A stretch of 64,000 nt of DNA from Escherichia coli. Lineage in GTDB: Bacteria > Pseudomonadota > Gammaproteobacteria > Enterobacterales > Enterobacteriaceae. This document shows positions 13,961-60,316 of the stretch, piece by piece. Location: NCBI RefSeq assembly GCF_003334255.1, contig NZ_QOWU01000014.1, one strand, 5' to 3'. Position 1 is the first letter of the stretch; every line of letters starts with the position of its first letter. The position numbers and the translations under genes were made by a program. The notes beneath the pieces were generated by a model that did no database searches, was not told the origin of the DNA, and was given only the letters and a program-made list of their open reading frames with translations.

Positions 13961-14785
13961 CTATTTCTTCTCTGTAATTTTTACACTGTTTTCCAACTGC
14001 TTGATGCTGACCTGCGGGGTCGGCAACTCCTCAGGCATGGTTCCGCCAAGTTCCTGAATGGTTTGCCTCACCTTGCGACCCACGTCAAAGTGTGTGGTGT
14101 TTGCTTGCTGTTTTGAATTCACGCCATCCCGCTTGAGTTTTTCTTCTGTTTGGGTAGCTCGAAAGAGATTAGCCGCCAGTTCTGTTGAACCCATATGATC
14201 CAGGATCTTCTGATTCTTTTTCAGCCCCTTCCGCTGATGAATAGCTTTCTGATCTAATCCACCATACAGCCCCCGGTAACCATGATTCTGAAATATGGCG
14301 AAATCGATAGCTGTCGCTCCCCCAGCTTGCTGCGCTGCCTCAACCAATTGTTTGTTATGTTCTTTCAATTCATTTCTCAGAAAAAGACGCTTTTCGTCTT
14401 CACGAAGTTGCCTGAAAGCTTCATCGTCAGCCAGCTCCTGCCGTCGGGTCTGGATAGCAAAATAAGTTTGCCCTGCCGCAATAACCGGTTTCGCAGGGTC
14501 GCCGTTTTGTACTACCAGGTAACAGGCATAGCGGGAGAGATGAACATCTTCAAGTTCTCGTTGAGCCCCTGAACCTAATACAACCATTTTGGTGGTTTCA
14601 ACGAAATGGTCAGATGCAGCTTGATTGCTGGCTTCGCACGCTTGAGTCGCGCGGGCCAGTACCTTTTGAAAATTGCGCCAGTCCCGATAATCCAGTAACG
14701 GTGCCAATTCTCTAGCTGACCAAAATTCTTGCCCTTCAGTGCCATAATGCCGTATTTCTTCAAAAGGTTGATGATGTTCGTTCAT
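13961..14785 (-). CDS. dinD: DNA damage-inducible protein D
   Basis: 274 aa from internal ATG (MNEHHQPFEEIRHYG); LexA-box-like palindrome upstream. Confidence 0.85.
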   Translation of the reverse strand: MNEHHQPFEEIRHYGTEGQEFWSARELAPLLDYRDWRNFQKVLARATQACEASNQAASDHFVETTKMVVLGSGAQRELEDVHLSRYACYLVVQNGDPAKPVIAAGQTYFAIQTRRQELADDEAFRQLREDEKRLFLRNELKEHNKQLVEAAQQAGGATAIDFAIFQNHGYRGLYGGLDQKAIHQRKGLKKNQKILDHMGSTELAANLFRATQTEEKLKRDGVNSKQQANTTHFDVGRKVRQTIQELGGTMPEELPTPQVSIKQLENSVKITEKK

Positions 14786-14830
14786 TGCCCACTCCATGTG
14801 ATATCGATTGCAAAGAAAGTAAATCTGTAA

Positions 14831-14846
14831 CTGTATTTATATACAG
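14831..14846. promoter_or_regulatory. LexA (SOS) box-like palindrome CTGTATTTATATACAG upstream of dinD
   Basis: CTGT-N8-ACAG palindrome about 50 bp upstream of the dinD start; coordinates hand-counted, +/-2 bp. Confidence 0.6.
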
Positions 14847-15005
14847 TTGTGAGTATCTCACGTTCTCAGTGTGCTGGGCAAAAAAACATCGCAAAATCTG
14901 GAGCAGGCACGCAAAACAGAATTGAAGTTGCGGGGAAGAAAAATGCCGCTCTGTTTGAGTGGGCGGCATTTGTGAAGGCTGAAAAGTAAGAATTAGTGTT
15001 ACGAG

Positions 15006-15869
15006 TTACTCAATATTCTGAATCTGCTCGCGCATCTGCTCAATCAACACTTTCAGCTCGATGGCGGAGTTTGTCACTTCGGCATTGATAGATTTCGACG
15101 CAAGAGTGTTCGACTCGCGGTTGAATTCCTGCATCATAAAGTCCAGACGACGACCAACGGCTTCTTTTTTCTTCAGAATGTTGTAGGTCTCTTTGACATG
15201 CGCTTCCAGGCGGTCCAGTTCTTCGGCAACGTCAATTCGTTGTGCCAGCAGAACCAACTCCTGCTCCAGACGGTTGTTTTCCAACTGAACCTGAGCATCT
15301 TCCAGCTTCGCGACCAGACGCTCACGCTGCCATTGCAGGATTTCCGGCATATGGGCGCGGACTTTGACCACTTCGGCGGTGACGCCTTCCAGACGCTGCT
15401 CGATCAATGCTTTCAGTGCCTGACCTTCGGTTTCGCGCGCGACAATAAAGTCGTCCAGCGTACCATCCAGCGCCGCGAGAATTTCAGCGGCAATGGCGTC
15501 GAGATCCTGCTCCTGGGCTGCCATCACGCCCGGCCAGCGCAGAATATCAACCGGGTTGATTTCCCCTTCGTCACTCTGCATTTTTACCCAGTTCGCGGCA
15601 GTTACCAGCTGTTTAGCCAGTTTTTCATTGAGGATCAGCTCACCTTGTGCGCTAACATCTGGCTCATAGCGCAGGGTACATTCCACTTTACCGCGCGTCA
15701 GGCGAGAACGAATACGCTCGCGAACGACAGGTTCAAGGCTACGGAACTGCTCCGGCAGACGAAAGTAAGTTTCCAGATAACGCTGGTTTACCGAGCGCAT
15801 TTCCCAGGTTGCGCTCCCCCATTCACCCTTGATTTCACGCCGGGCGTAGGCGGTCATACTGCGGATCAT
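15006..15869 (-). CDS. yicC: YicC-family stress-induced protein
   Basis: 287-aa ORF divergent from rph. Confidence 0.85.
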   Translation of the reverse strand: MIRSMTAYARREIKGEWGSATWEMRSVNQRYLETYFRLPEQFRSLEPVVRERIRSRLTRGKVECTLRYEPDVSAQGELILNEKLAKQLVTAANWVKMQSDEGEINPVDILRWPGVMAAQEQDLDAIAAEILAALDGTLDDFIVARETEGQALKALIEQRLEGVTAEVVKVRAHMPEILQWQRERLVAKLEDAQVQLENNRLEQELVLLAQRIDVAEELDRLEAHVKETYNILKKKEAVGRRLDFMMQEFNRESNTLASKSINAEVTNSAIELKVLIEQMREQIQNIE

Positions 15870-15995
15870 AGACGTTCCTGTTTATAAAAGGAGAGGTGGA
15901 AGGATTATAGCCATCGATGCCTTGTCAGGATAGGAATAACCGCCGGAAGTCCGTATAATGCGCAGCCACATTTGTTTCAAGCCGGAGATTTCAAT

Positions 15996-16712
15996 ATGCG
16001 TCCAGCAGGCCGTAGCAATAATCAGGTGCGTCCCGTTACCCTGACTCGTAACTATACAAAACATGCAGAAGGCTCGGTGCTGGTCGAATTTGGCGATACC
16101 AAAGTGTTGTGTACCGCCTCTATTGAAGAAGGCGTGCCGCGCTTCCTGAAAGGTCAGGACCAGGGCTGGATCACCGCAGAGTACGGCATGCTGCCACGTT
16201 CTACCCACACCCGTAACGCTCGTGAAGCGGCGAAAGGTAAGCAGGGTGGACGCACAATGGAAATCCAGCGTCTGATCGCCCGTGCTCTTCGCGCGGCAGT
16301 AGATTTGAAAGCGCTGGGTGAGTTCACCATTACGCTGGACTGCGACGTGCTTCAGGCTGATGGTGGCACGCGTACCGCGTCGATTACGGGTGCCTGCGTG
16401 GCGCTGGCAGATGCGCTACAGAAGCTGGTGGAAAACGGCAAGCTGAAAACCAACCCGATGAAAGGGATGGTAGCCGCAGTTTCTGTCGGTATTGTAAACG
16501 GTGAAGCAATTTGCGATCTGGAATACGTTGAAGACTCAGCCGCAGAGACCGACATGAACGTAGTGATGACCGAAGACGGGCGCATCATTGAAGTGCAGGG
16601 GACGGCAGAAGGCGAGCCGTTCACCCATGAAGAGCTACTCACCTTGTTGGCGCTGGCCCGAGGGGGAATCGAATCCATTGTAGCGACGCAGAAGGCGGCG
16701 CTGGCAAACTGA
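15996..16712 (+). CDS. rph: ribonuclease PH, full length
   Basis: 238 aa from [14 protein letters not shown] to ...[13 protein letters not shown] with no frameshift before the stop. Confidence 0.93.
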
Positions 16713-16717
16713 TTTTT

Positions 16718-16746
16718 AAGGCGACTGATGAGTCGCCTTTTTTTTG
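16718..16746 (+). terminator. rph-pyrE intercistronic attenuator hairpin with T-run
   Basis: AGGCGACT-GATG-AGTCGCCT stem-loop followed by a run of T, directly upstream of pyrE. Confidence 0.8.
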
Positions 16747-16777
16747 TCTGTAGAAAAGTAAGATGAGGAGCGAAGGC

Positions 16778-17419
16778 ATGAAACCATATCAGCGCCAGTT
16801 TATTGAATTTGCGCTTAGCAAGCAGGTGTTAAAGTTTGGCGAGTTTACGCTGAAATCCGGGCGCAAAAGCCCCTATTTCTTCAACGCCGGGCTGTTTAAT
16901 ACCGGGCGCGACCTGGCACTGTTAGGCCGTTTTTACGCTGAAGCATTGGTGGATTCTGGCATTGAGTTCGATCTGCTGTTTGGCCCTGCTTACAAAGGGA
17001 TCCCGATTGCGACCACTACCGCCGTGGCGCTGGCGGAGCATCATGACCTTGACCTGCCGTACTGCTTTAACCGCAAAGAGGCAAAAGACCACGGTGAAGG
17101 CGGCAATCTGGTTGGTAGCGCGTTACAAGGACGCGTAATGCTGGTAGATGATGTGATCACCGCCGGAACGGCGATTCGCGAATCGATGGAGATTATTCAG
17201 GCTAATGGCGCGACGCTTGCTGGCGTATTGATTTCGCTTGATCGTCAGGAACGGGGGCGCGGCGAGATTTCGGCGATTCAGGAAGTTGAGCGTGATTACA
17301 ACTGCAAAGTGATCTCTATCATCACCCTGAAAGATCTGATTGCCTATCTGGAAGAGAAGCCGGAAATGGCGGAACATCTGGCGGCGGTTAAGGCCTATCG
17401 CGAAGAGTTTGGCGTTTAA
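16778..17419 (+). CDS. pyrE: orotate phosphoribosyltransferase
   Basis: 213 aa from internal ATG ([13 protein letters not shown]); PRPP-binding motif [13 protein letters not shown]. Confidence 0.93.
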
Positions 17420-17455
17420 AGAAACTCGCCGGATGAAAAGTCATCCGGCGTCATA

Positions 17456-18052
17456 TTACTGCAACTGCGCGGCAATTAGCGGCCAGCGGGCGTCAAAATC
17501 ATCCGTCGGGCGGTATTTAAATTCGCTGCGGACAAAACGTGACAGCATACCTTCACAGAAGGCCAGGATCTGGCTTGCCAGCAGGGTTTCATCGGTGGTG
17601 TAACCTTCACCCTCACGCATTCTCTTTTCACGCAATACCTGACGCAGCTGCGCTTCAATACGCTCGAACAGCTGGTTGATACGCCCTTGCAGGCGATCCT
17701 GTTCAAACATCAGCGCATGACCAGTGAGGATGCGGGTCAGGCCAGGATTACGCTCACCAAAACCGAGAAGCAGCAACACAATCAGACGCAGGCGCGCTGT
17801 GGTGTCTTTCTCATCTTTCAGAATCAGGTTGATGCGAGTAATCAGGCTATCTTCGATAAACTCAATCAGGCTATCGAACATGCGGGTCTTACTGGGGAAG
17901 TGGCGATACAGTGCCGCTTCGGAAACGCCGACAGAGGCGGCCAGTTTTGCCGTCGTGATACGTTGGCTTCCATCGCTGGATTCCAGCATCAGCGCCAGAG
18001 ACTGAAGTATTTCCTCGCGACGGTTCCTTTTCGCAGTTTGTTTTTCTGCCAT
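17456..18052 (-). CDS. slmA: nucleoid occlusion factor SlmA (TetR family)
   Basis: 198 aa from internal ATG ([16 protein letters not shown]); helix-turn-helix near N-terminus. Confidence 0.9.
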
Positions 18053-18617: not shown

Positions 18618-19815
18618 AACGGGTCACGATCTCGTCGAGTAATAATTGGCCAAGGAGCTCTTTGCGCTCAAGCGGTAAGACTTTATCTCCGTCCTGCCAG
18701 AAAAGGTGTAATGCGTTGTTGTCGCTGTTAAATCCTTGAGTTGGCTGGGAAACATCGTTCGCGCAGATCAGATCAAGGTTTTTACGGATACGTTTTTGCC
18801 GGGCGTATTCTTCCACATTATTTGTTTCGGCGGCAAATCCAACGACGTAGGGTCGATGGTCTTTTAGTGCGGCAACGCCTGCGACGATATCGGGGTTTTT
18901 AACCATTTTTATTGTTAATTCATCACCCTGCGTGGCCTGCTTTTTGATTTTTTCTGGGGCCACGGTAGCTGCGCGATAATCCGCCACGGCGGCGCAACCG
19001 ATAAAAATATTTTGCTGCTGTACAGAAGCATTCACGGCGGCTTCCATTTCCAGCGCGGTCATCACATCAACACGTTTAACAAACGGTGGCGTCGGTAGTG
19101 AAACCGGACCTGATACCAGCGTGACGTTCGCGCCACGACGGGCAGCGGCGGCGGCGATAGCAAAACCCATCTTGCCGGAGCTGTGATTAGAGATATAACG
19201 CACCGGATCGAGCGGTTCACGCGTCGGGCCGGCGGTAATCATAATGTTCAGATGTTTCAGGTCGTTGACGGGCGAAAAATGCGCTACCGCCATATCCACA
19301 ATGGTTAATGGATCGAGCATTCGCCCTGGGCCGATATCACCACAAGCCTGACTGCCACTGTCTGGCCCCCAGATCAGCAAACCACGGGAAGCAAGCACCT
19401 CTAAATTATGCTGCGTGGCAGCGGCACGGTACATCTGCTGGTTCATGGCGGGGAGCACGGCTACAGGCGCAGGTGTAGCCAGACAAATCGTCGATACCAG
19501 GTCATTCGCCATTCCGGCAGCAACACGGGCAATCAAATCTGCCGTGGCAGGGGCGAGAATCACTAAATCAGCCCATTTACCCAGCTCAATATGGCCCATA
19601 GCGGCTTCGGCTGCCGGGTCCAGCAGACTGTCGGAAACGGGATAACCAGAAACCGCCTGCAAGCTAAGTGGGGTGATAAAGGCTTTTGCCGCTTCGGTCA
19701 TGGCTACGCGGACGTCGGCCCCGCGATCGCGCAAACGACGCACCAGTTCAGGGGTTTTATAGGCAGCAATACCGCCGCTAACGCCGAGAACGATTTTTTT
19801 ACCGGCCAGGCTCAT
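18595..19815 (-). CDS. coaBC: bifunctional phosphopantothenoylcysteine decarboxylase / synthetase
   Basis: 406 aa from internal ATG ([20 protein letters not shown]); overlaps dut start. Confidence 0.92.
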
Positions 19816-19986
19816 GATGATTTTTCCTGTTGGGTGACACCAGAAGTTGGCGATTTTATCACAATACTTTTGTTGTCGTGCCTTCACCTGAGATTCACTT
19901 TGCGAGGCTCTTTCCAGGATTGAAAACTGGCCGTCGATTTAACGGAACGACTATGACAGGATGCGAGCACCACAAAGGAGGTGAAG

Positions 19987-20655
19987 GTGAAAAACAATGC
20001 ACAGCTGTTGATGCCGCGCGAAAAAATGCTGAAGTTTGGTATTAGCGCCTTAACGGATGTCGAGCTGCTGGCGCTATTTCTGCGTACCGGAACGCGCGGT
20101 AAAGATGTATTAACCCTGGCAAAAGAGATGCTGGAGAATTTCGGCTCTCTTTATGGCTTGTTAACCTCTGAATATGAACAATTTAGTGGTGTTCATGGAA
20201 TTGGCGTAGCGAAATTTGCCCAGTTAAAGGGGATTGCTGAACTGGCGCGACGTTACTACAACGTGCGGATGCGTGAAGAAAGCCCTTTACTCAGCCCGGA
20301 GATGACGCGGGAATTTTTACAAAGCCAGCTCACGGGTGAGGAGCGGGAGATCTTTATGGTGATCTTTCTCGACTCCCAACACCGGGTTATAACGCATAGC
20401 CGTCTTTTTTCCGGCACGCTAAACCATGTTGAAGTCCATCCTCGGGAAATTATCCGCGAAGCGATAAAAATAAACGCCTCGGCGCTGATCCTTGCACATA
20501 ATCATCCTTCGGGTTGTGCTGAACCCAGTAAAGCGGATAAACTCATTACTGAACGGATAATAAAGAGTTGTCAGTTCATGGATTTACGCGTGCTCGACCA
20601 TATCGTGATTGGGCGTGGAGAGTATGTTTCTTTTGCCGAACGCGGCTGGATTTAA
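19987..20655 (+). CDS. radC: RadC-like JAB-domain protein
   Basis: 222 aa from second GTG, which has better spacing to the AAAGGAG ribosome-binding site; HNHPSG motif present. Confidence 0.85.
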
Positions 20656-20850
20656 CCCGCTATGCGCGATCCTTCGGGATCTTTGTCTGTTCGGGACTTG
20701 AGCACATCGCTGAGTCAGCGTATACTACGCCACCTTTGAGAATCTCGGGTTTGGCATTTGGGCCTGGCAATCGAGAGTTCACATAGAACTGCGATGACCG
20801 GGCTGTAAAGCCTGACGAGGCGCCAATACCCCATACGAAGCTCGAGCTAA

Positions 20851-21108
<258 letters not shown>

Positions 21109-21125
21109 GTACTTAGAGGAAATAA

Positions 21126-21296
<171 letters not shown>

Positions 21297-21320
21297 TTCT
21301 CGCTTTGATGTAACGAAAAA

Positions 21321-21343
21321 CCTCGCTCCGGCGGGGTTTTTTG
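21321..21343 (+). terminator. rho-independent terminator after rpmG
   Basis: CCTCGC-TCCG-GCGGGG stem-loop followed by TTTTTT. Confidence 0.7.
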
Positions 21344-21393
21344 TTATCTGCTTACCCCCATATTGATTGCATCTGTTCATTCCTGGAGATGCT

Positions 21394-22203
21394 ATGCCTG
21401 AATTACCCGAAGTTGAAACCAGCCGCCGCGGCATAGAACCGCATCTCGTTGGTGCAACCATTCTTCATGCTGTGGTGCGCAACGGACGCTTGCGCTGGCC
21501 GGTTTCAGAAGAGATCTACCGATTAAGCGATCAACCAGTGCTTAGCGTGCAGCGGCGGGCTAAATATCTGCTGCTGGAGCTGCCTGAGGGCTGGATTATC
21601 ATTCATTTGGGGATGTCTGGCAGCCTGCGCATCCTTCCAGAAGAACTTCCCCCTGAGAAGCATGACCATGTTGATTTGGTGATGAGCAACGGCAAAGTGC
21701 TGCGCTACACCGATCCGCGCCGCTTTGGTGCCTGGCTGTGGACCAAAGAGCTGGAAGGGCACAACGTGCTGGCCCATCTTGGACCGGAGCCGCTTAGCGA
21801 CGATTTCAACGGTGAGTACCTGCATCAGAAGTGCGCGAAGAAAAAAACGGCGATTAAACCGTGGCTGATGGATAACAAGCTGGTGGTAGGGGTAGGTAAT
21901 ATTTATGCCAGCGAATCACTGTTTGCGGCGGGGATCCATCCGGATCGGCTGGCGTCATCACTGTCGCTGGCAGAGTGTGAATTGTTAGCTCGGGTGATTA
22001 AAGCGGTGTTGCTGCGTTCGATTGAGCAGGGTGGTACAACGCTGAAAGATTTTCTGCAAAGTGATGGTAAACCGGGCTATTTCGCGCAGGAATTGCAGGT
22101 TTACGGGCGAAAAGGCGAGCCGTGTCGGGTGTGCGGTACGCCGATTGTGGCGACTAAACATGCGCAGCGGGCAACGTTTTATTGTCGGCAGTGCCAGAAG
22201 TAA
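21394..22203 (+). CDS. mutM: formamidopyrimidine-DNA glycosylase
   Basis: 269 aa from internal ATG ([20 protein letters not shown]); C-terminal zinc finger [26 protein letters not shown]. Confidence 0.93.
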
Positions 22204-22212
22204 TTCATGCGC

Positions 22213-22234
22213 GCCGGATGGCATACCATCCGGC
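22213..22234. other. perfect palindrome GCCGGATGG-CATA-CCATCCGGC between convergent mutM and coaD
   Basis: 9-bp inverted repeat in the 38-bp gap between the two stop codons; no T-run on either side. Confidence 0.5.
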
Positions 22235-22241
22235 ATAAACG

Positions 22242-24006
<1,765 letters not shown>

Positions 24007-24357
24007 AGTAAATAGCTGACTTATGGATGTGCTGGGGATTCTATGTATTTAGCTGTGGCTTTACCATTACTTTTCCCGTTTTTGACTTAAATAGCAATTT
24101 ACCCGCCAATTCTTGCTGAACATCTATACTTTTTTTGTATTTTTATGCGATTCATTGATTTCTGCTGTACGTGCAGGAAGGAATCGCAGAGCAACAGTGA
24201 AAGAATATGGTTGCTAATGATTTTATTTGATTGATTTCTTTATTGAAAATCAACAATGTGCTTAAAAATCATTCGGGTCGGATTGCCGCGAAAGAAGTGA
24301 TACACTAGCGCGTCAATATCAGTGCGGTATCAGTATTCAGGTAGCTGTTGAGCCTGG

Positions 24358-24369
24358 GGCGGTAGCGTG
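24358..24369 (+). promoter_or_regulatory. ops element GGCGGTAGCGTG (RfaH recruitment site) in the waaQ leader
   Basis: exact 12-mer about 50 bp upstream of the waaQ start. Confidence 0.8.
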
Positions 24370-24418
24370 CTTTTTCTGCTTCACCTTAATCGGATAATCT
24401 CAACAAAAAGAGTTACTT

Positions 24419-25477
24419 GTGGATAAGCCATTTCGAAGAATTTTGCTCATTAAGATGCGTTTTCATGGGGATATGTTATTAACTACTCCCGTCATTAGTT
24501 CGCTGAAAAAAAATTACCCTGACGCAAAAATCGATGTGCTGCTTTATCAGGACACCATCCCGATCCTGTCTGAAAATCCAGAGATTAACGCGCTCTACGG
24601 CATAAAAAATAAAAAAGCAAAAGCCTCAGAAAAAATTGCCAACTTTTTTCATCTCATCAAGGTATTACGTGCCAATAAGTATGACCTTATCGTCAATCTT
24701 ACCGATCAATGGATGGTTGCTATACTGGTTCGCTTATTAAATGCTCGTGTGAAAATTTCCCAGGATTATCATCATCGGCAGTCTGCTTTTTGGCGTAAAA
24801 GTTTCACCCATTTGGTGCCGTTGCAGGGTGGAAATGTGGTGGAAAGTAACTTATCCGTGCTGACACCATTGGGACTTGATTCGTTGGTGAAGCAGACAAC
24901 CATGAGTTACCCGCCTGCAAGCTGGAAACGTATGCGTCGCGAACTTGATCACGCTGGTGTTGGACAAAATTATGTGGTTATCCAACCTACGGCGCGGCAA
25001 ATCTTCAAATGCTGGGACAACGCCAAGTTTTCCGCTGTGATTGATGCCTTACATGCTAGTGGTTATGAAGTCGTTCTGACGTCCGGCCCGGATAAAGACG
25101 ATCTGGCCTGCGTCAATGAAATTGCGCAGGGATGCCAGACGCCACCAGTAACGGCGCTGGCTGGAAAGGTGACCTTCCCGGAACTTGGTGCGTTAATCGA
25201 TCATGCGCAGCTGTTTATTGGCGTTGATTCCGCACCGGCGCATATTGCCGCTGCAGTTAATACGCCGCTGATATCGCTGTTTGGTGCGACAGACCATATT
25301 TTCTGGCGTCCCTGGTCAAATAACATGATTCAATTCTGGGCGGGAGATTACCGGGAAATGCCAACGCGCGATCAGCGTGACCGAAATGAGATGTATCTTT
25401 CGGTTATTCCGGCGGCAGATGTCATTGCTGCTGTCGATAAATTACTGCCCTTCTCCACGACAGGTACGTCGTTATGA
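24419..25477 (+). CDS. waaQ: LPS heptosyltransferase III (GT9)
   Basis: GT9 N-terminal motif RILLIKMRFHGDMLLTTPVISSL; GTG start as in ORF track, ATG at 24455 is the alternative. Confidence 0.85.
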   Translation: MDKPFRRILLIKMRFHGDMLLTTPVISSLKKNYPDAKIDVLLYQDTIPILSENPEINALYGIKNKKAKASEKIANFFHLIKVLRANKYDLIVNLTDQWMVAILVRLLNARVKISQDYHHRQSAFWRKSFTHLVPLQGGNVVESNLSVLTPLGLDSLVKQTTMSYPPASWKRMRRELDHAGVGQNYVVIQPTARQIFKCWDNAKFSAVIDALHASGYEVVLTSGPDKDDLACVNEIAQGCQTPPVTALAGKVTFPELGALIDHAQLFIGVDSAPAHIAAAVNTPLISLFGATDHIFWRPWSNNMIQFWAGDYREMPTRDQRDRNEMYLSVIPAADVIAAVDKLLPFSTTGTSL

Positions 25478-26598
25478 TCGTTGCTTTTTGTTTATATAAA
25501 TATTTTCCCTTTGGCGGTTTGCAGCGCGATTTTATGCGTATTGCTCAGACAGTCGCCGCCCGAGGTCATCATGTTCGGGTTTATACCCAGTCGTGGGAAG
25601 GCGAATGCCCTGATGTATTTGAACTGATCAAAGTGCCGGTTAAATCGCATACCAATCACGGGCGCAATGCGGAGTATTTTACCTGGGTGCAAAAACATTT
25701 ACGCGAACATCCCGTCGATAAAGTCGTTGGATTCAACAAAATGCCGGGGCTGGACGTTTATTATGCCGCTGATGTTTGTTATGCCGAGAAAGTAGCGCAG
25801 GAGAAAGGCTTTTTCTATCGCCTGACGTCACGTTATCGCCATTATGCCGCCTTTGAGCGGGCAACCTTCGAACAGGGCAAGCCGACACAGCTGCTGATGC
25901 TGACAGATAAGCAAATCGCCGATTTCCAGAAACATTATCAGACTGAAGCGGAGCGTTTTCATATTCTGCCACCGGGGATTTATCCTGATCGTAAATATAG
26001 CCAGCAGCCAGCCAATAGCCGTGAAATCTTCCGTAAGAAGAATGGAATAACCGAACAACAATATTTATTGTTGCAGGTCGGTTCAGACTTCACGCGTAAA
26101 GGTGTCGATCGTTCCATTGAAGCACTTGCTTCTTTACCGGATTCGCTGCGCCACAACACATTGCTATATGTTGTTGGGCAGGATAAACCGCGAAAATTTG
26201 AGGCGCTGGCAGAAAAACGCGGCGTGCGCAGTAATGTTCACTTCTTCTCGGGGCGCAATGATGTCTCGGAATTAATGGCGGCGGCGGATTTATTACTGCA
26301 TCCTGCCTACCAGGAAGCGGCGGGAATTGTGCTGCTGGAAGCGATTACTGCAGGATTACCGGTACTAACAACAGCCGTTTGTGGCTATGCGCCTTATATT
26401 GTCGAGGCCAATTGCGGCGAGGCTATTGCTGAGCCATTCCGCCAGGAAACATTGAATGAGATTTTACGCAAAGCGTTAACGCAATCTTCATTGCGCCAGG
26501 CCTGGGCGGAAAATGCGCGACATTATGCTGATACACAAGATTTATACAGTCTGCCAGAGAAAGCGGCGGATATCATAACGGGTGGTCTGGATGGTTGA
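25474..26598 (+). CDS. waaG: LPS glucosyltransferase I (GT4)
   Basis: 374-aa ORF overlapping waaQ stop by 4 bp. Confidence 0.9.
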
Positions 26599-27388
26599 AC
26601 TTAAAGAGCCGTTTGCCACGTTATGGCGCGGTAAAGATCCTTTTGAGGAAGTTAAAACCTTGCAGGGTGAGATATTTCGTGAACTGGAAACTCGCCGTAC
26701 TCTGCGCTTTGAAATGGCGGGAAAAAGCTATTTTCTCAAATGGCATCGCGGCACGACCCTGAAAGAGATAATCAAAAATTTACTCTCATTGCGGATGCCA
26801 GTATTAGGCGCAGACCGCGAATGGAATGCGATTCATCGACTGCGGGATGTCGGCGTTGATACTATGTATGGGGTGGCATTCGGCGAAAAAGGCATGAATC
26901 CGCTGACCAGAACCTCGTTTATTATTACCGAAGATCTGACACCAACCATAAGTCTGGAAGATTACTGTGCTGACTGGGCGACCAACCCACCAGATGTTCG
27001 CGTAAAGCGTATGCTTATTAAGCGTGTCGCGACGATGGTGCGCGATATGCATGCTGCGGGCATTAATCACCGTGACTGTTATATCTGTCATTTCCTGCTG
27101 CACTTGCCTTTTTCCGGTAAGGAAGAGGAGTTAAAAATTTCGGTAATTGACCTGCACCGGGCGCAGCTTCGCACGCGCGTTCCACGTCGTTGGCGCGATA
27201 AAGATCTTATTGGACTTTATTTTTCTTCGATGAATATTGGCCTGACTCAGCGGGATATCTGGCGGTTTATGAAGGTGTATTTTGCCGCTCCGCTTAAAGA
27301 CATTCTCAAGCAGGAACAAGGACTGCTGTTGCAAGCAGAAGCAAAAGCCACAAAAATCAGGGAAAGAACGATTCGAAAATCGTTGTAA
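26591..27388 (+). CDS. waaP: LPS core heptose(I) kinase
   Basis: 265 aa from internal ATG ([21 protein letters not shown]). Confidence 0.9.
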
Positions 27389-27430
27389 CCCGTAACTTAT
27401 TTTTGCCAAAATTTTGGATACAGAATAAAT

Positions 27431-28438
27431 ATGTCTCAACTCAATGATAGTGACATCATCCTTTTTGAGTATAATTTTCATTATCAAAATATAAGATCTA
27501 AAAATACTCTTGATATAGCATTTGGTATTGACAGAAATTTTCTTTTTGGATGTGGTGTAGCCATCGCATCTATTCTATTAAACAATAGAGAAATCTCTTG
27601 TGAATTTCATGTTTTCACAGATTATATCAGTGATAAAGACAAATTATATTTTTCTGATTTAGCAAAACAATATAATTCAAGAATTAATATTTATGTTATC
27701 AATTGTGATAAGCTGAAGTCATTACCAAGCACGAAAAACTGGACTTACGCAACATATTTTCGATTTATAATTGCAGATTATTTCTATCATAAACATGAAA
27801 AAATACTATATCTTGATGCAGATATTGCTTGCAAGGGTAGTATTAAAGAACTCTTAGATTATCAATTTTCTACTAATGAAATTGCCGCAGTTGTAGCTGA
27901 AAGAGATGTTGAATGGTGGCAAAATCGAGCCTCGGTATTAACTACACCACAGTTAGCTTCTGGATATTTCAATGCTGGTTTTTTACTGATAAATATTGAT
28001 GAGTGGAATCTAAATAACATTTCGTCAAAAGCTATTGAAATGTTGCGTGACCCAGATTGGGTAAGTAAAATCACCCACCTTGATCAAGATGTACTGAATG
28101 TATTATTGAATGGTAAAGTGAAGTTTATTTCGGAGAAATATAATACCCGATATAGTATTAACTATGAATTAAAAGACAAAGTTGATAATCCAGTCAATGA
28201 TGACACCGTGTTTATACACTATGTGGGACCTACAAAACCCTGGCATGAGTGGGCTGACTATCCGGTGTCACGTAGTTTTTTGATCGCCAAAGCAGCTTCT
28301 CCGTGGAGTAAAGAAGATTTACTTAAACCTGTAAATAGCAATCAGTATCGGTATTGTGCAAAACATAAATTTAAACAAAAGCATTATATGGCAGGCATTT
28401 TTAATTATTTAAAGTATTATAAAGAAAAATGCTTCTAA
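27431..28438 (+). CDS. waaI: GT8-family outer-core glycosyltransferase (WaaI-like)
   Basis: 335 aa with GT8 DxD motif YLDADIACKGSI; position after waaP fits the R3 gene order; AT-rich. Confidence 0.7.
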   Translation: MSQLNDSDIILFEYNFHYQNIRSKNTLDIAFGIDRNFLFGCGVAIASILLNNREISCEFHVFTDYISDKDKLYFSDLAKQYNSRINIYVINCDKLKSLPSTKNWTYATYFRFIIADYFYHKHEKILYLDADIACKGSIKELLDYQFSTNEIAAVVAERDVEWWQNRASVLTTPQLASGYFNAGFLLINIDEWNLNNISSKAIEMLRDPDWVSKITHLDQDVLNVLLNGKVKFISEKYNTRYSINYELKDKVDNPVNDDTVFIHYVGPTKPWHEWADYPVSRSFLIAKAASPWSKEDLLKPVNSNQYRYCAKHKFKQKHYMAGIFNYLKYYKEKCF

Positions 28439-28463
28439 AGATTTAAGGTTAAAATAATTCATT

Positions 28464-29171
28464 ATGATATATAATAAAACGATAAATGGGTTGAAAGTTT
28501 TCATAAAAGATAATGATCCCTTTTATGAGCAAGTTCTAAATGACTTTTTAACTTGCAGGGTTAAAACATTAAAAGTTTTTCGTTCTATTGATGATACTAA
28601 AGTCATTCTTATTGACACTGCTCGTGGACCTCTTGTACTTAAAGTTTATGCGCCAAAGCATAAAATGACCGAACGTTTCTTAAAATCTTGCATAAAAAAA
28701 GATTATTATGAAAATTTAATTTATCAAACCGATCGGGTACGTGGTGAAGGCATCCAATCAATTAATGACTATTTTTTGCTAGCTGAACGTAAAACATTAA
28801 ATTTCGCTCATTATTATATTATGCTCATTGAGTATATTGAAGGTGTCGGGTTAAATGAGTATTTGGAAATTTCTGAAGATCTGAAGGATCAATTATCAGA
28901 ATCGATAAAAGAGTTGCATCAGCATGGAATGGTGTCTGGCGATCCTCATAAAGGAAATTTTATAGTATCCGAAAAAGGTTTAAGACTAATTGACCTTTCA
29001 GGTAAAAAAACAACCGCTGTTTTAAAAGCAAAAGATCGCATTGATCTTGAACGGCACTATAATATAAAAAATGAATTGAAAGACTTTGGCTATACATATC
29101 TTATATTCAAAAAGAAAATTAAAAAAGTAATCAGGGATGTAAAAGTCAAACTAGGATTGAAGAGCAAATAA
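28464..29171 (+). CDS. waaY: LPS core heptose(II) kinase
   Basis: 235-aa kinase-like ORF (LVLKVY...HGMVSGDPHKGNF) between the two GT8 genes. Confidence 0.75.
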   Translation: MIYNKTINGLKVFIKDNDPFYEQVLNDFLTCRVKTLKVFRSIDDTKVILIDTARGPLVLKVYAPKHKMTERFLKSCIKKDYYENLIYQTDRVRGEGIQSINDYFLLAERKTLNFAHYYIMLIEYIEGVGLNEYLEISEDLKDQLSESIKELHQHGMVSGDPHKGNFIVSEKGLRLIDLSGKKTTAVLKAKDRIDLERHYNIKNELKDFGYTYLIFKKKIKKVIRDVKVKLGLKSK

Positions 29172-29195
29172 TGATTATGATGAAGGGTAATTAAA

Positions 29196-30209
29196 TTGGA
29201 TTTTAAACATCTTACTCAATTTAAAGATATAATTGAACTGGACAAGCGCCCCGTTAAACTTGATGAACGGGAAACGTTTAATGTCTCATGGGGTATTGAT
29301 GAGAACTACCAGGTTGGGGCTGCGATTTCAATTGCTTCAATTCTTGAAAATAATAAACAAAACAAATTTACCTTTCACATAATCGCTGATTACTTAGACA
29401 AAGAGTATATTGAATTATTATCACAATTAGCAACGAAGTATCAAACAGTAATTAAATTATATCATATTGATTCTGAGCCATTGAAGGCGCTACCTCAATC
29501 AAATATCTGGCCAGTATCTATTTATTATCGTTTGCTTTCATTTGATTATTTTTCTGCGCGATTGGATTCATTATTATATCTTGATGCTGATATCGTCTGT
29601 AAGGGTTCATTGAACGAGTTAATAGCATTAGAGTTTAAAGATGAATATGGGGCAGTGGTAATTGATGTAGATGCTATGCAAAGTAAAAGCGCTGAGCGTT
29701 TGTGTAATGAGGATTTTAACGGTAGCTATTTTAACTCTGGTGTAATGTATATTAATTTACGGGAATGGTTAAAACAAAGACTAACGGAAAAATTCTTTGA
29801 TCTATTATCAGATGAGTCAATTATAAAAAAATTAAAGTACCCGGATCAAGATATTTTAAACTTAATGTTTCTACATCATGCTAAAATATTACCGAGAAAA
29901 TATAATTGTATTTATACTATAAAGTCAGAATTTGAAGAAAAAAATAGTGAATATTACACCCGGTTTATTAATGATGACACTGTCTTCATACATTATACTG
30001 GTATAACTAAGCCATGGCATGATTGGGCGAACTACGCCTCTGCAGATTATTTTCGTAATATTTATAATATATCACCATGGAGAAATATACCTTATAAAAA
30101 AGCTGTTAAAAAACATGAGTACAAAGAAAAATATAAACACTTGCTTTACCAGAAAAAATTTCTCGATGGTGTTTTTACAGCAATTAAATATAATGTTATG
30201 AAAGGTTAA
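29196..30209 (+). CDS. waaJ: GT8-family outer-core glycosyltransferase (WaaJ-like)
   Basis: 337 aa with GT8 motif YLDADIVCKGSL; paralogous to the 27431-28438 ORF. Confidence 0.7.
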   Translation: MDFKHLTQFKDIIELDKRPVKLDERETFNVSWGIDENYQVGAAISIASILENNKQNKFTFHIIADYLDKEYIELLSQLATKYQTVIKLYHIDSEPLKALPQSNIWPVSIYYRLLSFDYFSARLDSLLYLDADIVCKGSLNELIALEFKDEYGAVVIDVDAMQSKSAERLCNEDFNGSYFNSGVMYINLREWLKQRLTEKFFDLLSDESIIKKLKYPDQDILNLMFLHHAKILPRKYNCIYTIKSEFEEKNSEYYTRFINDDTVFIHYTGITKPWHDWANYASADYFRNIYNISPWRNIPYKKAVKKHEYKEKYKHLLYQKKFLDGVFTAIKYNVMKG

Positions 30210-30217
30210 TATACGAG

Positions 30218-31360
30218 ATGGTTGATAAAATAATATTTACGGTTACTCCTATTTTTTCAATTCCTCCTCGCGGAGCGGCTGCTGTTGAAACGTGGATGTA
30301 TCAGGTTGCTCAGCGTACCAATTTTCCAAATCGTATTGTTTGTATCAAAAATCCAGGATACTCAAATTACACCTTTGTTAATGATAATTGTAGTATTCAT
30401 AGGGTTGGATTCAGTCGCATATATAAGCGGTTATTTCAAAAATGGACAAGACTTGATCCTCTTCCATATTCACAGAGAATATTGAATATTGCACATGATT
30501 TTCCTATAACGAAAGAAAGTGTTATTGTAGTTCATAATAGCATGAAGCTATACACTCAAATTCGTAAGCGAGCTCCTCAGGCAAGAGTGGTTATACATAT
30601 GCATAATGCATTTGAACCAAAATTGCTTGAGCAAAATGTTAAAATGATAGTGCCTAGTTTATACTTGAAAAAGTATTACCAATCTTATTTAGCAAATGCA
30701 GATATTGAGATTGTACCAAATGGAATTGATTTAGAAACCTATCAATCTAATTTTCAGCCGATCACTAGAAGCGAACTTAATATCTCCCCTGAAGAGAAAA
30801 TTATTTTTTATGCTGGGCGTATCGTCCCTGACAAAGGCATATTGCTGTTGATGCAATCATTCGAAAAATTGGCCGCTGCTCACAAAAATTTAAAATTAGT
30901 TGTGATTGGTGATTATACAGAAATGAGTAAAAGTGACAAAGGTGCATATCAACGCAATGTCAGGGAAATTGCAAAACGTTTGAAGGATCGTTGCATTATG
31001 TTAGGAAGCATACCGCCTGAAAAGATGCATTGTTATTACCCACTGGCAGATTTAGTCGTCATTCCTTCCCAGTTCCAGGAACCATTTTGCATGGTGGCAA
31101 TTGAAGCTATGGGTGCTGGTAAGCCTGTTTTAGTGAGTACGCGTGGGGGGATGACGGAATTTGTCAAAGAAAATACTACGGGATTCCATTTAAAAGAACC
31201 TATGACTGCAGACTCCATAAGCAGCGATATTTTAAAAACGTTAGCGAATCCTGAATTAACAGCAGTTGCAAAGCAAGGTCAGGACTTTGTGTTTGATCAC
31301 TACAGTTGGGATGGCGTAACTCAAAGATTCGAAGAGGTTATTCATAATTGGTTTGAATAA
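30218..31360 (+). CDS. waaD: GT4-family glycosyltransferase (WaaD-like, R3 outer core)
   Basis: 380 aa with retaining-GT4 C-terminal motif (FQEPFCMVAIEAMGAGKPV); last gene of the waaQ operon before convergent waaL. Confidence 0.65.
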   Translation: MVDKIIFTVTPIFSIPPRGAAAVETWMYQVAQRTNFPNRIVCIKNPGYSNYTFVNDNCSIHRVGFSRIYKRLFQKWTRLDPLPYSQRILNIAHDFPITKESVIVVHNSMKLYTQIRKRAPQARVVIHMHNAFEPKLLEQNVKMIVPSLYLKKYYQSYLANADIEIVPNGIDLETYQSNFQPITRSELNISPEEKIIFYAGRIVPDKGILLLMQSFEKLAAAHKNLKLVVIGDYTEMSKSDKGAYQRNVREIAKRLKDRCIMLGSIPPEKMHCYYPLADLVVIPSQFQEPFCMVAIEAMGAGKPVLVSTRGGMTEFVKENTTGFHLKEPMTADSISSDILKTLANPELTAVAKQGQDFVFDHYSWDGVTQRFEEVIHNWFE

Positions 31361-31362
31361 AT

Positions 31363-31395
31363 AAAAAGGCCGCATTATGCAGCCTTTTTTATTTT
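31363..31395. terminator. bidirectional rho-independent terminator between waaD and waaL
   Basis: AAAAAGGC...GCCTTTTTT perfect stem with A-run on one side and T-run on the other. Confidence 0.8.
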
Positions 31396-32604
31396 TTACT
31401 TGTTTTTCATCGCTAATAATAAGCCGGCGTAAACGCCTAATAAATTTGGTTCAATTTGTTCTACGTTTCCACGGATAACAAAATAACCTATAAAAGATAG
31501 TAAGATTATATAATATGCATTATATGGTGAGCGATATTTATTCTTGACGCCATTTTTTATACACTCTTTCAATATTGCACAGTATAGCATCATAAGACTT
31601 ACCAGCCCTAATAAACCAGTGCCAAACCAGATGAATAGCGCAAAATTATGTGGCCCTATTGATTGTCTAAAGGTCCATTCTGGATAATCAATGACACGTT
31701 TATTATAGACATCTTTATATGCAACGTTACCGTAACCATAACCAATAACAGGATTTTCTAATATTAGATCGAGTGCGCTGCCTTGAGTACCATTTGCATA
31801 GCGATAAGAACTATTAGTTTGTTGAAGTTTATACGTTAGCTTTGCGGTCATCTCCTTATGTGTGAAAATAACCGACAATGCAATGATGGCAACCATTACT
31901 CCTACTAATAGTAACTTCCATTGTTTAAACATCAGAATCCATATTAATCCAATGACTAACACGGAAAGCCAGGCCCCTCTGGATAAAGTTCCTAATATCA
32001 GAAAAATAAAAATAACGCTTAGAACCACAAAAGAAATGCGGTATTTTGCTGATTTGATAAGCCAGAGATTTAACAATGCAGGGAATAAAAAGACCATCGA
32101 GTCAGAAATGCTACGGTGTCTATAATCTGCGAATGGCATTATCCCTTGTTGATAGTCCTTATAATAGGTAATCAATTCAGAAAAACAGCGTAAGCCCAAC
32201 GCACTAATAAATGAGAAGAAAACGATTTTTTCGACATCTTCTCTTTTCTCGTCTCTCAATATGATCGGTATTGCTATTGTGCATAGTAAAGTATTCTCAA
32301 TAATAGCTTTGAAAATTTCCTTCATGCTAGCACCTGCATCAGGGGATTGAAGAAGTGACAGCAATGCAGCAATAGTTAATATGGCAACACTACCAAAAAG
32401 AAATGTTTTAAATAGTGAGAGATAGTGTTTTGGCCGTTTGCAGAGATAGACGATTGTCGTTATTGTCATAAGAATAACAATAAGATGTTTATACCTTGTA
32501 ATCCCACCCAAAAAATAGGTGGTAATGAATAAGAATACGAGAGCTCTGTTCCAGTACGCTATCCAGTTTTTTTTCTCGAGAGAGAAAAATAATGTTGAGG
32601 TCAT
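31396..32604 (-). CDS. waaL: O-antigen ligase
   Basis: 402-aa polytopic membrane protein downstream of waaC in the hldD-waaF-waaC operon; AT-rich. Confidence 0.8.
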   Translation of the reverse strand: MTSTLFFSLEKKNWIAYWNRALVFLFITTYFLGGITRYKHLIVILMTITTIVYLCKRPKHYLSLFKTFLFGSVAILTIAALLSLLQSPDAGASMKEIFKAIIENTLLCTIAIPIILRDEKREDVEKIVFFSFISALGLRCFSELITYYKDYQQGIMPFADYRHRSISDSMVFLFPALLNLWLIKSAKYRISFVVLSVIFIFLILGTLSRGAWLSVLVIGLIWILMFKQWKLLLVGVMVAIIALSVIFTHKEMTAKLTYKLQQTNSSYRYANGTQGSALDLILENPVIGYGYGNVAYKDVYNKRVIDYPEWTFRQSIGPHNFALFIWFGTGLLGLVSLMMLYCAILKECIKNGVKNKYRSPYNAYYIILLSFIGYFVIRGNVEQIEPNLLGVYAGLLLAMKNK

Positions 32605-33593
32605 CTTATCTCCGATGTCAACTTATTGGTTATTATTTCAAGATTTAAATTTTGAAAAACGGTTTGAGCTGGCAAATCTGCAAGAGACATACTTGTAGAA
32701 CGACACTCTACTTGATTCTTCCCATACCCACCAATTAATCCCGGATCGGTTGGTCCATAAACCGTGATATTGGGTCTATCCAGTGCCGCCGTTAAATGGC
32801 TTAACCCCGTATCCACCGACACTACAAATTTAGCCCCGGCCAGCACGCGGGCAACGCCTTCCAGACTCATCTTCGGCAATACTTCAACATAAGCAAATCC
32901 TTCCGCCAGTCGTTTCGCCCGTTCTTCCTCATGCGGCGCGCCCCACGGAAGTTTAATCCGTATTCCTGAATCAGCCAGTAAACCAATCAATTCTCGCCAG
33001 TGTTCTTCCGGCCAGTGTTTATCATCACGGGTCGTCGCATGAAGAAATACGGCATATTCGCCAGCATCTGTAGGCAGGTTCGTCAGAAAATGCTGTGCGA
33101 TAGCATAATCGCCCTGGGTTTGCGGTTTGCTATAGCCCAAACTTTTGGCAAACAGTTCGCGGGTGCGTTCTACGGCGTGCTGCTGTTTTGCAATATGATG
33201 CTTACGATTGTAAAACAGGCTGGCTAAAGGTTCGCGAGCGGTTTGCCAGTCCATGCCATGCTTTACGCCATGCGCCAGACGCGTCACCAGCGCCGCGCTT
33301 TTTACCAGCCCCTGAGCGTCGATAACTGCGTCATAGTTCTCTGCTTGTAGCGCTTCACGAAACGCTTTGCGTTCCGCTTTTATGGGGGCCGAGAACCAGG
33401 CTTTACGCCAGCGACGTATTGCCACAGGAATAACTCGCTCAACGGCAGCGTGCCAGGAAGGAATCTGTGCGAACCCTTCTTCCACCACCCAGTCAAACTT
33501 AATCCCTGGGATTGCCTGCTGGGCATCAGTGAGTGCGGGCAACGTATGGAGAACATCGCCCATCGACGATGTTTTAACGATCAAAACCCGCAT
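32601..33593 (-). CDS. waaC: LPS heptosyltransferase I (GT9)
   Basis: 330 aa MRVLIVKTSSMGDVLHTLPAL; stop overlaps waaL start. Confidence 0.9.
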   Translation of the reverse strand: MRVLIVKTSSMGDVLHTLPALTDAQQAIPGIKFDWVVEEGFAQIPSWHAAVERVIPVAIRRWRKAWFSAPIKAERKAFREALQAENYDAVIDAQGLVKSAALVTRLAHGVKHGMDWQTAREPLASLFYNRKHHIAKQQHAVERTRELFAKSLGYSKPQTQGDYAIAQHFLTNLPTDAGEYAVFLHATTRDDKHWPEEHWRELIGLLADSGIRIKLPWGAPHEEERAKRLAEGFAYVEVLPKMSLEGVARVLAGAKFVVSVDTGLSHLTAALDRPNITVYGPTDPGLIGGYGKNQVECRSTSMSLADLPAQTVFQNLNLEIITNKLTSEIR

Positions 33594-33596
33594 CCG

Positions 33597-34643
33597 TCAG
33601 GCTTCCTCTTGTAACAATAGCGCGTTGAGTTCTTCCAGTACGCGCTGGGGAGTAATGTCGATTAAGCTCTGGTGATAACCCTCCGCAGCGTCACCTTTAC
33701 GCACTTTGTGATAGCCGGTAATCAAACGGATCACGCGCGCTTTATGGGATAGCGGCGGTGTGAAGTCCGGGCTACTCGGACCATACAGGGCAACCAGCGG
33801 ACGATTGAGCGCCGCCGCAACATGCATCAGGCCAGAATCGTTAGTGACAATGGCTTTACAGGCTGCAATCAGGATAACCGCTTGATCAAGCTGTGTTTCC
33901 CCCGCCAGGTTCCGACACCATGCCTGCTGCTCGGTATTCAAAGCGGCAAGAATCTCATTGCCCGCTTCATGATCTTTCGCCGAGCCAAACAGAACCACCT
34001 GATAACCTTCATCAATCAGCTGCTTTGCCAGCTCCGCATAGTGGTAGTGTGGCCAGCGTTTTGCCGGACCAAACTCCGCACCCGGGCAAAAACCAATCAT
34101 CGGACGTTCTGATGAAAGCGAAAATTGATTACAGGTATATGATTTTTCACCTTCGCTCACCTGCAACTGCGGCCATAACAATGGCTGCGGCAGATCTTGT
34201 GCTGTGCGCATAATGCCTTTGTCATAGGCCAGCGCTATATAGCGTTCCACCATTAGCGGCCAGGCTTCTTTATCGAGCACGCGTACATCGTTGAGTAAAC
34301 CGTAGCGCATCTCGCCGCGCCAGCCGGTGCGATGAGGAATACCCGCGAAGAAAGGCACTAATGCAGATTTGAAGGAGTTGGGTAAGACGTAGGCGCGGTC
34401 GTAGCGCTTTTCACGCAGGCTATGACCCAGTTTGCGGCGTTCGCCGATTTCCAGCGCTCCGTGACCGAGAGGCATAGGAATAGCTTCGTTAACTTCCGGC
34501 ATCCGCGATAATAATGGACGGCACCATGCCGGTGCCATCACATCGATTATCGCCTGGGGATAGCGCGCCTGGAGCGTGCGATAGAGACTTTGCGACATCA
34601 TCATGTCGCCAACCCAAGACGGGCCGATCACCAGTATTTTCAT
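33597..34643 (-). CDS. waaF: LPS heptosyltransferase II (GT9)
   Basis: 348 aa MKILVIGPSWVGDMMMSQSLYRTL. Confidence 0.92.
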   Translation of the reverse strand: MKILVIGPSWVGDMMMSQSLYRTLQARYPQAIIDVMAPAWCRPLLSRMPEVNEAIPMPLGHGALEIGERRKLGHSLREKRYDRAYVLPNSFKSALVPFFAGIPHRTGWRGEMRYGLLNDVRVLDKEAWPLMVERYIALAYDKGIMRTAQDLPQPLLWPQLQVSEGEKSYTCNQFSLSSERPMIGFCPGAEFGPAKRWPHYHYAELAKQLIDEGYQVVLFGSAKDHEAGNEILAALNTEQQAWCRNLAGETQLDQAVILIAACKAIVTNDSGLMHVAAALNRPLVALYGPSSPDFTPPLSHKARVIRLITGYHKVRKGDAAEGYHQSLIDITPQRVLEELNALLLQEEA

Positions 34644-34652
34644 GCAGAGCTC

Positions 34653-35585
34653 TTATGCGTCGCGATTCAGCCAGGCCATGTATTCCGTTACACCTTCAGC
34701 AACGGTTTTGAACGGTTTGTCGTAACCCGCCGCGCGCAGATTCGTCAGATCTGCCTGAGTGAACGCCTGATAGCGGCCTTTCAGTTTATCCGGGAACGGA
34801 ATGTATTCGATCTGGCCTTTCTTGTGATAAGCCAGCGTAGCATCAGCTACCGCCTGGAAGGATTCCGCACGACCAGTACCGAGATTGAAGATGCCGGAAA
34901 CGCCATTTTCCAGGAACCACAGATTCACATCAGCCACGTCGCCCACATAGACGAAGTCGCGTTTGAAGTTCTCGCTACCTTCAAACAGCTTCGGTGATTC
35001 ACCGTTGTTAAGCTGGGTGTTGAGATGGAAAGCGACGCTCGCCATGCTGCCTTTATGGCCTTCACGCGGTCCATAAACGTTGAAATAACGGAAGCCAACA
35101 ATCTGCGAGTTCGCTTCAGGCAGGATTTGACGAACATATTCATCAAACAGGAATTTTGAGTAACCGTAGACGTTCAACGGTTTTTCGTACTCGCGGGATT
35201 CAATAAAGTCGGAGGTGCGTCCGCCGTAGGTGGCTGCGGAAGAAGCGTACAGGAACGGGATTTCACGCTCCAGGCAGTAGTGCAGCAGCTCCTTGGAGTA
35301 TTGATAGTTGTTATCCATCATATACTTGCCGTCCCACTCGGTGGTGGAAGAGCACGCGCCTTCGTGGAAAATCGCTTCGACATCGCCGAACTCTTCGCCA
35401 GCCATAATCTGGATCAGGAAGTCTTCCTTATCCATATAGTCTGCGATATTCAGATCCACCAGGTTCACAAACTTGGTGCCGTCTTTCAGGTTGTCCACCA
35501 CCAGAATATCGGTGATGCCTTTATCATTCAGGGCTTTAACGATGTTGCTGCCGATAAAGCCCGCGCCGCCGGTAACGATGATCAT
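34653..35585 (-). CDS. hldD: ADP-L-glycero-D-manno-heptose 6-epimerase
   Basis: 310 aa [23 protein letters not shown] (Rossmann GxGxxG). Confidence 0.93.
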
Positions 35586-35873
35586 AACTGTAACCTTCGA
35601 ATTATGGAGTCAGAGACAATCTCAGACACGAATGTCTGTAATCATACCATCACATCCGAATCCCTTCAGCCCTTTACATAGAGGTGCAAGGATGCTAATT
35701 GCAACAAACTAGTTTGGGTTTTAGCTAGTCCTTCATGGCGGATGTTGGTTTTGCATGTGAATAGTGCTTTAGTATCAATATTCCGATGTATGATAAATAA
35801 CGGAAGCATTTGAATGGATAATATACAGTATACATTCTATTAATATTTATGATATAATTCTTTTTTTATATTA

Positions 35874-36746
35874 ATGGTCTTATTAGTAATGAAATCATCC
35901 ACCACAATTATCACTGCATATTTTGACATTGGTAGAGGGGATTGGACTGCTAATAAAGGGTTCCGTGAAAAACTAGCTCGTTCAGTTGATGTTTATTTTA
36001 GTTACTTTGAGCGTCTGGCCGCACTTGAAAATGAGATGATTATTTTCACTTCTCCCGATTTGAAACCAAGGGTTGAAGCGATTCGCAACGGAAAACCAAC
36101 AACGGTTATCGTTATCGATATAAAAAAGAAATTTAGATATATCAGAAGTCGTATCGAAAAAATTCAAAAAGATGAGTCGTTTACAAATAGACTTGAGCCT
36201 CGACAATTAAAAAACCCAGAGTACTGGTCACCAGAGTATGTTTTGGTATGTAACCTTAAGGCCTATTTTGTAAATAAAGCTATCAACATGGGCTTAGTGA
36301 AAACGCCTCTTGTTGCGTGGATAGATTTTGGCTATTGCCGTAAGCCAAATGTAACTCGAGGATTGAAAATTTGGGATTTCCCATTTGATGAAAGTAAGAT
36401 GCATCTTTTCACTATAAAAAAAGGGCTTACTGTCACATCTCAACAACAGGTTTTTGATTTCATGATTGGCAATCATGTATATATTATTGGGGGCGCAATT
36501 GTTGGTTCACAGCATAAATGGAAAGAATTCTATAAATTAGTTCTGGAAAGTCAAAAAATAACACTAAATAATAACATTGTGGACGATGACCAGGGCATTT
36601 TTGTCATGTGCTATTACAAACGCCCCGATCTCTTCAACCTAAACTATCTGGGGAGAGGAAAATGGTTCGATTTGTTTCGCTGCTTCAGGAGTAACACTTT
36701 AGGGGCAAAAATGCAGGCGCTGAGAATTTTCCTTTCAAGAAAATAG
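35874..36746 (+). CDS. htrL: HtrL (YibB) family protein
   Basis: 290-aa AT-rich ORF between hldD and kbl; alternative start at 35889 gives 285 aa. Confidence 0.75.
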   Translation: MVLLVMKSSTTIITAYFDIGRGDWTANKGFREKLARSVDVYFSYFERLAALENEMIIFTSPDLKPRVEAIRNGKPTTVIVIDIKKKFRYIRSRIEKIQKDESFTNRLEPRQLKNPEYWSPEYVLVCNLKAYFVNKAINMGLVKTPLVAWIDFGYCRKPNVTRGLKIWDFPFDESKMHLFTIKKGLTVTSQQQVFDFMIGNHVYIIGGAIVGSQHKWKEFYKLVLESQKITLNNNIVDDDQGIFVMCYYKRPDLFNLNYLGRGKWFDLFRCFRSNTLGAKMQALRIFLSRK

Positions 36747-60228: not shown

Positions 60229-60316
60229 ATCTAACTCTCTCTGAAATTGTCTTGCAGTAACTGCACTCGCAGAAATAGAGAAAAAAATACAATTGTTAAT
60301 AATCTTGCCATATTTT

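Follow-up and report, generated by a model that had tools for sequence, protein, structure and literature searches.

A full-length rph-pyrE operon in an Escherichia coli contig with an R3-type lipopolysaccharide core

Introduction

The expression of pyrE in Escherichia coli is set by a UTP-sensitive attenuator, at which read-through rises when UTP is low (PMC2784333, citing Bonekamp 1984 and Jensen 1993; PMC5933015). At low UTP, RNA polymerase slows, the ribosome finishing rph is close behind it, the hairpin is blocked, and pyrE is transcribed; at high UTP, the polymerase outruns the ribosome, which leads to termination (PMC2784333, PMC5933015).

The rph-1 allele causes a polar reduction of pyrE expression (PMC2784333, PMC9997739). 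Release of the ribosome occurs too far upstream, with the result that termination prevails and the cells experience partial pyrimidine starvation (PMC2784333, PMC5933015). This allele is present in EMG2, MG1655, and W3110 and is absent from the K-12 strain WG1 (PMC9997739).

Here, the rph-pyrE locus in a 64-kb stretch of E. coli DNA (the window) is compared with these systems. A preliminary description, made from the sequence alone, had singled out positions 15996-16750, a span that corresponds to the rph gene plus the attenuator.

Results

The rph gene and its product

15996..16712, plus strand: rph, full-length ribonuclease PH (RNase PH), 238 aa plus TGA (ORF, translation, profile match, and annotation of E. 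coli G6/7)

The preliminary description read rph as a full-length gene of 238 codons, and the translation of the window bears this out. The ORF starts with the ATG at 15996 and ends with the TGA at 16710-16712. In the annotation of the near-identical genome of E. coli G6/7, rph is called at coordinates identical to those of this ORF. A Shine-Dalgarno sequence, GGAG, is located 8 nt upstream of the ATG. The mechanical ORF list gives the TTG at 15972 as the start; the homology to RNase PH begins at residue 2 of the ATG form.

In a profile search, the product matched the NCBIfam equivalog model TIGR01966 (RNasePH) with 378.6 bits (E 8.7e-114; cutoff 141.5). Residues 2-236 are aligned to model positions 1-235 of 236, and this match is far beyond chance. 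The comparison with solved structures gave an E-value of 4.4e-103 for the P. aeruginosa RNase PH (1r6l) and 2.1e-82 for 1oyp. The segment with the conserved DGGTRTA is identical between the rph product and the solved structures in the alignments shown. By homology, the product is unambiguously RNase PH, and phosphorolytic 3'-5' exoribonuclease activity is predicted for it. RNase PH is a phosphorolytic 3'-5' exoribonuclease that trims the 3' ends of tRNAs.

The scan for sigma-70 consensus promoters upstream of rph returned no site, and the sole weak site was inside pyrE. The TATAAT at 15954-15959 has no good -35 element at a distance of 16-18 nt. The yicC-rph intergenic region shows no difference from MG1655. 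Two minus-strand ORFs antisense to rph, at 15882-16208 and 16352-16678, are by-products of the coding strand.

The rph-1 deletion site

16662..16666, plus strand: run of five G, the K-12 rph-1 deletion site, intact here (alignment to MG1655)
16681..16683, plus strand: TAG, which ends the rph-1 frame prematurely; not in frame in the window and not used there (MG1655 translation, coordinates)

The preliminary description had named an alignment to the K-12 rph-1 region as the check on its reading. The MG1655 locus (NC_000913.3), where rph is annotated as "truncated RNase PH", was used as the comparator in this pairwise alignment. There is a single indel. The window has GAGGGGGA at 16660-16667, with five G, where MG1655 has GAGGGGA, with four G. 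The G missing from the MG1655 run is the rph-1 deletion. After the deletion, the MG1655 frame reads ...ARGESNPL*, and the product is 228 aa in length. The K-12 rph-1 allele is characterized by the one-base deletion in the 3' G run, the frameshift, and the 228-aa product; the window, with its five G and 238 aa, does not belong to it.

Besides the indel, 29 substitutions are observed between the window and MG1655 over 15861-17439, which makes 30 differences over 1.58 kb. The two sequences show zero differences between 16663 and 16911.

The pyrE attenuator and PyrE

16718..16745, plus strand: pyrE attenuator, intrinsic terminator hairpin (AAGGCGACU-GAUG-AGUCGCCUU) plus T8 tract (terminator scan, RNA fold)
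16778..17419, plus strand: pyrE, orotate phosphoribosyltransferase, 213 aa (TIGR00336, 240.6 bits)

An intact attenuator hairpin ahead of pyrE had also been described, and it was recovered by the terminator scan and RNA folding. The hairpin at 16718-16739 has a 9-bp stem and a folding energy of -14.3 kcal/mol for the hairpin alone, and the T8 tract is at 16738-16745. It is positioned after the rph stop and ahead of the pyrE start (16778), and its sequence is identical to that of MG1655. In this intergenic position, the GC-rich hairpin and the U tract are those of an intrinsic terminator, as in the UTP-sensitive pyrE attenuator.

Counted from the rph TGA, the stem begins after 5 nt and its GC core after 7 nt. 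The distance from the rph-1 stop to the first stem base is 34 nt. It is established that a ribosome at the stop codon reaches as far as the hairpin, and the computed spacing of 5 nt places the rph stop of the window close enough for the ribosome to occlude it. The Rfam scan found no family at threshold at rph-pyrE, the pyrE attenuator included, and its sole match in the whole window was JUMPstart.

The pyrE gene shows 18 nucleotide differences from MG1655. All of them are synonymous, and the PyrE protein is identical to that of K-12.

Frequency of rph alleles in E. coli

The 1,551-bp rph-pyrE region was found as a single copy in 5,425 of the 5,426 complete E. coli genomes, with annotated rph and pyrE in every match listed. 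The MG1655 rph-1 haplotype, used as an 88-nt query, had an exact match in 167 of the 5,426 genomes. The 40 matches listed out of these 167 are all K-12 laboratory strains or their derivatives, including MG1655, W3110, BW25113, J53, and HMS174. The K-12 haplotype repaired to five G had an exact match in 180 genomes, mostly K-12 laboratory strains; DH5alpha, DH10B, DH1, C600, MC4100, NCM3722, RR1, and ER and NEB strains are among the carriers.

Full-length rph is the default state of E. coli, and ~97% of complete genomes do not have the rph-1 haplotype. Of the K-12 laboratory genomes that have been sequenced, roughly half are rph+. The status of rph is a weak test for K-12 because the full-length gene is the norm and is also present in about half of the K-12 laboratory genomes. 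Taken by itself, a full-length rph rules out K-12 strains with rph-1, such as MG1655, W3110, BW25113, and J53, but not K-12 generally. The title of the preliminary description had set this gene apart from common K-12 laboratory strains. The distinction is correct against strains with rph-1 but too broad as worded, given the 180 genomes that combine the K-12 haplotype with five G.

The Gly55Asp allele

16158..16160, plus strand: codon 55, GAC (Asp), rare missense allele; GGC (Gly) in MG1655 and O157:H7 (alignment)

The exact 89-nt context of Gly55Asp is present in 10 of the 5,426 complete E. coli genomes. They are the same ten genomes that match the window at 100% over 1,551 bp, with humans, swine, and seawater as their listed sources.

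Among 150 representatives of the RNase PH family (50%-identity clusters), the column corresponding to codon 55 contains G in 105, N in 12, K in 6, S in 6, D in 5, and E in 3. The neighboring G57 and W58 are each found in 148 of the 150. Of the RNase PH proteins with solved structures, those of all four species shown in the alignment (P. aeruginosa, B. subtilis, M. tuberculosis, and B. anthracis) have Gly at position 55. Gly55 was considered as an invariant catalytic or structural glycine, but this was rejected because the column is variable in the 150 representatives, five of which have Asp. The preference for G, N, and D fits, in our interpretation, a moderately conserved turn position tolerating Asp. 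It is probable from this pattern that Gly55Asp is tolerated by RNase PH, and full enzymatic activity of the product is assumed here.

Lipopolysaccharide core type and similarity to K-12

27431..32604: R3-type waa outer-core genes; waaI (annotated as waaO), waaY, waaJ, and waaD (annotated as LPS N-acetylglucosaminyltransferase) on the plus strand, waaL on the minus strand (G6/7 annotation, R3 nomenclature)

The assignment to the R3 core in the preliminary description holds. In-silico PCR, allowing up to 2 mismatches, was performed with the typing primers for the R1, R2, R3, R4, and K-12 cores (PMC13293308). Both R3 primers match exactly, R3-R at 29280-29302 (plus strand) and R3-F at 30281-30300 (minus strand), and the resulting waaJ-waaD product is 1,021 bp at 29280-30300. 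The R1, R2, R4, and K-12 typing primers have no site in the window at up to 2 mismatches.

O157:H7 is typed as R3 (PMC8715443, PMC13293308). Positions 19001-36205 of the window are colinear with O157:H7 PV15-279, with 99.2% identity over 17.2 kb. For WaaO/I, the GlcNAc transferase, and RfaL, the annotations of G6/7 and O157:H7 PV15-279 carry the same RefSeq accessions, and there are zero nucleotide differences between G6/7 and the window in these three genes. At comparator positions 14488-17555 of O157:H7 PV15-279, yicG is split by an insertion of ISEc8, an IS66-family element, and an extra hypothetical gene is present between gltS and recG; the window has neither the insertion nor the extra gene.

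The region of the window at ~27285-32712 has no counterpart in MG1655 beyond two patches of 64-69% identity. Neither the K-12 haplotype across rph-pyrE nor the K-12 waa outer core is present in the window. The 29 other substitutions in rph-pyrE, together with the non-K-12 outer core, rule out K-12 altogether. It had been argued earlier that the source is not of the MG1655/W3110 type, and the absence of the rph-1 deletion, the substitutions, and the outer core support this argument.

The identity to MG1655 is mosaic along this part of the window: 89.8% over 19001-27284, absent in the outer core, and 99.95% over 32713-37000, which includes waaC, waaF, rfaD, and yibB. Such a pattern is consistent with recombination breakpoints on both sides of the variable waa region, the backbone otherwise being close to K-12.

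The JUMPstart RNA element (RF01707), the only Rfam match at the gathering threshold in the 64 kb, is located at 24331-24369 on the plus strand with 55.2 bits, in the leader upstream of waaQ.

The closest genome

The closest genome is that of E. coli G6/7 (NZ_CP060061.1), a commensal from healthy human faeces in Germany, which is colinear with the whole 64-kb window. It has the same rph allele, with the protein WP_032231559.1, and shows 7 single-base differences from the window in 64 kb. No genome identical to the window was found in the collection of complete E. coli genomes.

The possibility that the window is G6/7 itself is ruled out by these seven SNPs, one of which concerns waaH. The waaH gene (39491-40525, plus strand) is intact in the window and encodes 344 aa, whereas the G6/7 copy carries an internal stop and is listed as a pseudogene. 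A single base at 40274 accounts for this: codon 262 reads GAA in the window but TAA in G6/7. Six other SNPs also separate the two sequences. The interval 59099-62892 contains four of the seven.

According to the G6/7 annotation, an Rhs element region occupies ~59791-64000 on the minus strand:

59791-60311, minus strand: frameshifted Imm57-family immunity gene (G6/7 annotation)
60683-60901 and 61408-62364, minus strand: two orphan RHS C-terminal fragments (G6/7 annotation)
Rhs region, minus strand: yibG and yibA, and a full RHS core protein starting at 63257 and running off the window (G6/7 annotation)

Discussion

We interpret the locus, with a probability of about 96%, as the bicistronic rph-pyrE operon in its wild-type form, from a natural E. 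coli that is not K-12 and has an R3 lipopolysaccharide core. Nothing in the analysis contradicts it. What the window shows directly is the structure of the genes, the lack of the rph-1 deletion, an attenuator and a PyrE that are identical to those of K-12, and the strain background. It is an ordinary wild-type operon, whose biology is already known.

Homopolymer runs are prone to error on some platforms, and the run of five G could be such a sequencing or assembly error that hides a frameshifted allele. However, ten independent complete assemblies are 100% identical to the window over 1,551 bp, and only 167 of the 5,426 genomes have the rph-1 haplotype, with K-12 laboratory strains or derivatives in all 40 matches listed. 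An error of this kind is extremely improbable. The window might also come from an rph+ K-12 laboratory derivative of the DH5alpha, DH10B, MC4100, or C600 type, not from a natural isolate. This would be consistent with the 180 genomes, mostly of K-12 laboratory strains, in which the K-12 haplotype has all five G in the run, and with the 99.95% identity of 32713-37000 to MG1655. Against it are the 29 substitutions relative to MG1655 over 15861-17439 besides the indel, the outer-core waa genes that have no K-12 counterpart, the exact R3 amplicon with no site for the K-12 primers, and the genomes nearest to the window, which are commensal and environmental isolates. There is hardly any probability left for a laboratory K-12 origin.

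A wild-type operon of a natural isolate is thus the preferred interpretation, and the remaining alternative concerns the enzyme. The full-length RNase PH might be impaired by Gly55Asp, so that tRNA 3' trimming would be reduced while pyrE regulation would be normal. The conservation of Gly in all four aligned species with solved structures and in 105 of the 150 family representatives, as well as the restriction of the allele to 10 of 5,426 E. coli genomes, are in line with impairment. On the other hand, the column is not invariant and also accepts N, K, S, D, and E, unlike those of G57 and W58, and the allele persists in isolates listed from humans, swine, and seawater, which speaks against a strongly deleterious effect. 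Impairment is unlikely on balance. Even if Gly55Asp impairs the enzyme, the attenuation of pyrE would not change, as ribosomes still translate rph up to its normal stop. It is likewise quite improbable that Gly55Asp, in this small lineage from humans, swine, and seawater, alters the enzyme activity or the hexamer assembly and represents a natural hypomorph. If it did, the hypomorph would keep pyrE attenuation and would separate the two phenotypes that are confounded by rph-1.

For the wild-type operon that we prefer, the coupling at the attenuator should work normally because the rph frame is intact. At low UTP, the ribosome completing rph would cover the 5' arm of the hairpin, by which termination would be suppressed and pyrE would be turned on. 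At high UTP, the polymerase would be ahead of the ribosome, and transcription would terminate before pyrE. The window has the wild-type geometry, and therefore normal pyrE regulation is expected. The source strain should be free of the partial pyrimidine starvation of MG1655 and W3110; both this phenotype and the coupling are projected from the literature.

The full-length rph is a provenance marker only, indicating that the window is not from MG1655, W3110, or BW25113; therefore, the pyrimidine limitation typical of these strains should not apply. The discrimination from K-12 rests on the haplotype and the R3 core.

Among the known systems, the K-12 rph-1 allele of MG1655, W3110, BW25113, and EMG2 occupies the same locus, and its promoter-proximal region and attenuator are identical to those of the window. 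It differs in being one G short at 16662-16666, with its stop 34 nt upstream of the hairpin, whereas the window does not have the deletion. The wild-type rph+ operon of O157:H7, E. coli C, ATCC 8739, and the K-12 strains DH10B, MC4100, and NCM3722 has the same gene order as the window, namely yicC, rph-pyrE, and slmA on the opposite strand. It also shares with the window the 238-aa length of RNase PH, the spacing between the stop and the hairpin, and the identical attenuator and PyrE protein. The RNase PH of the window differs from the O157:H7 protein at two positions (G55D and V172I) and from the repaired K-12 protein at four (G55D, V138A, V172I, and I216T).
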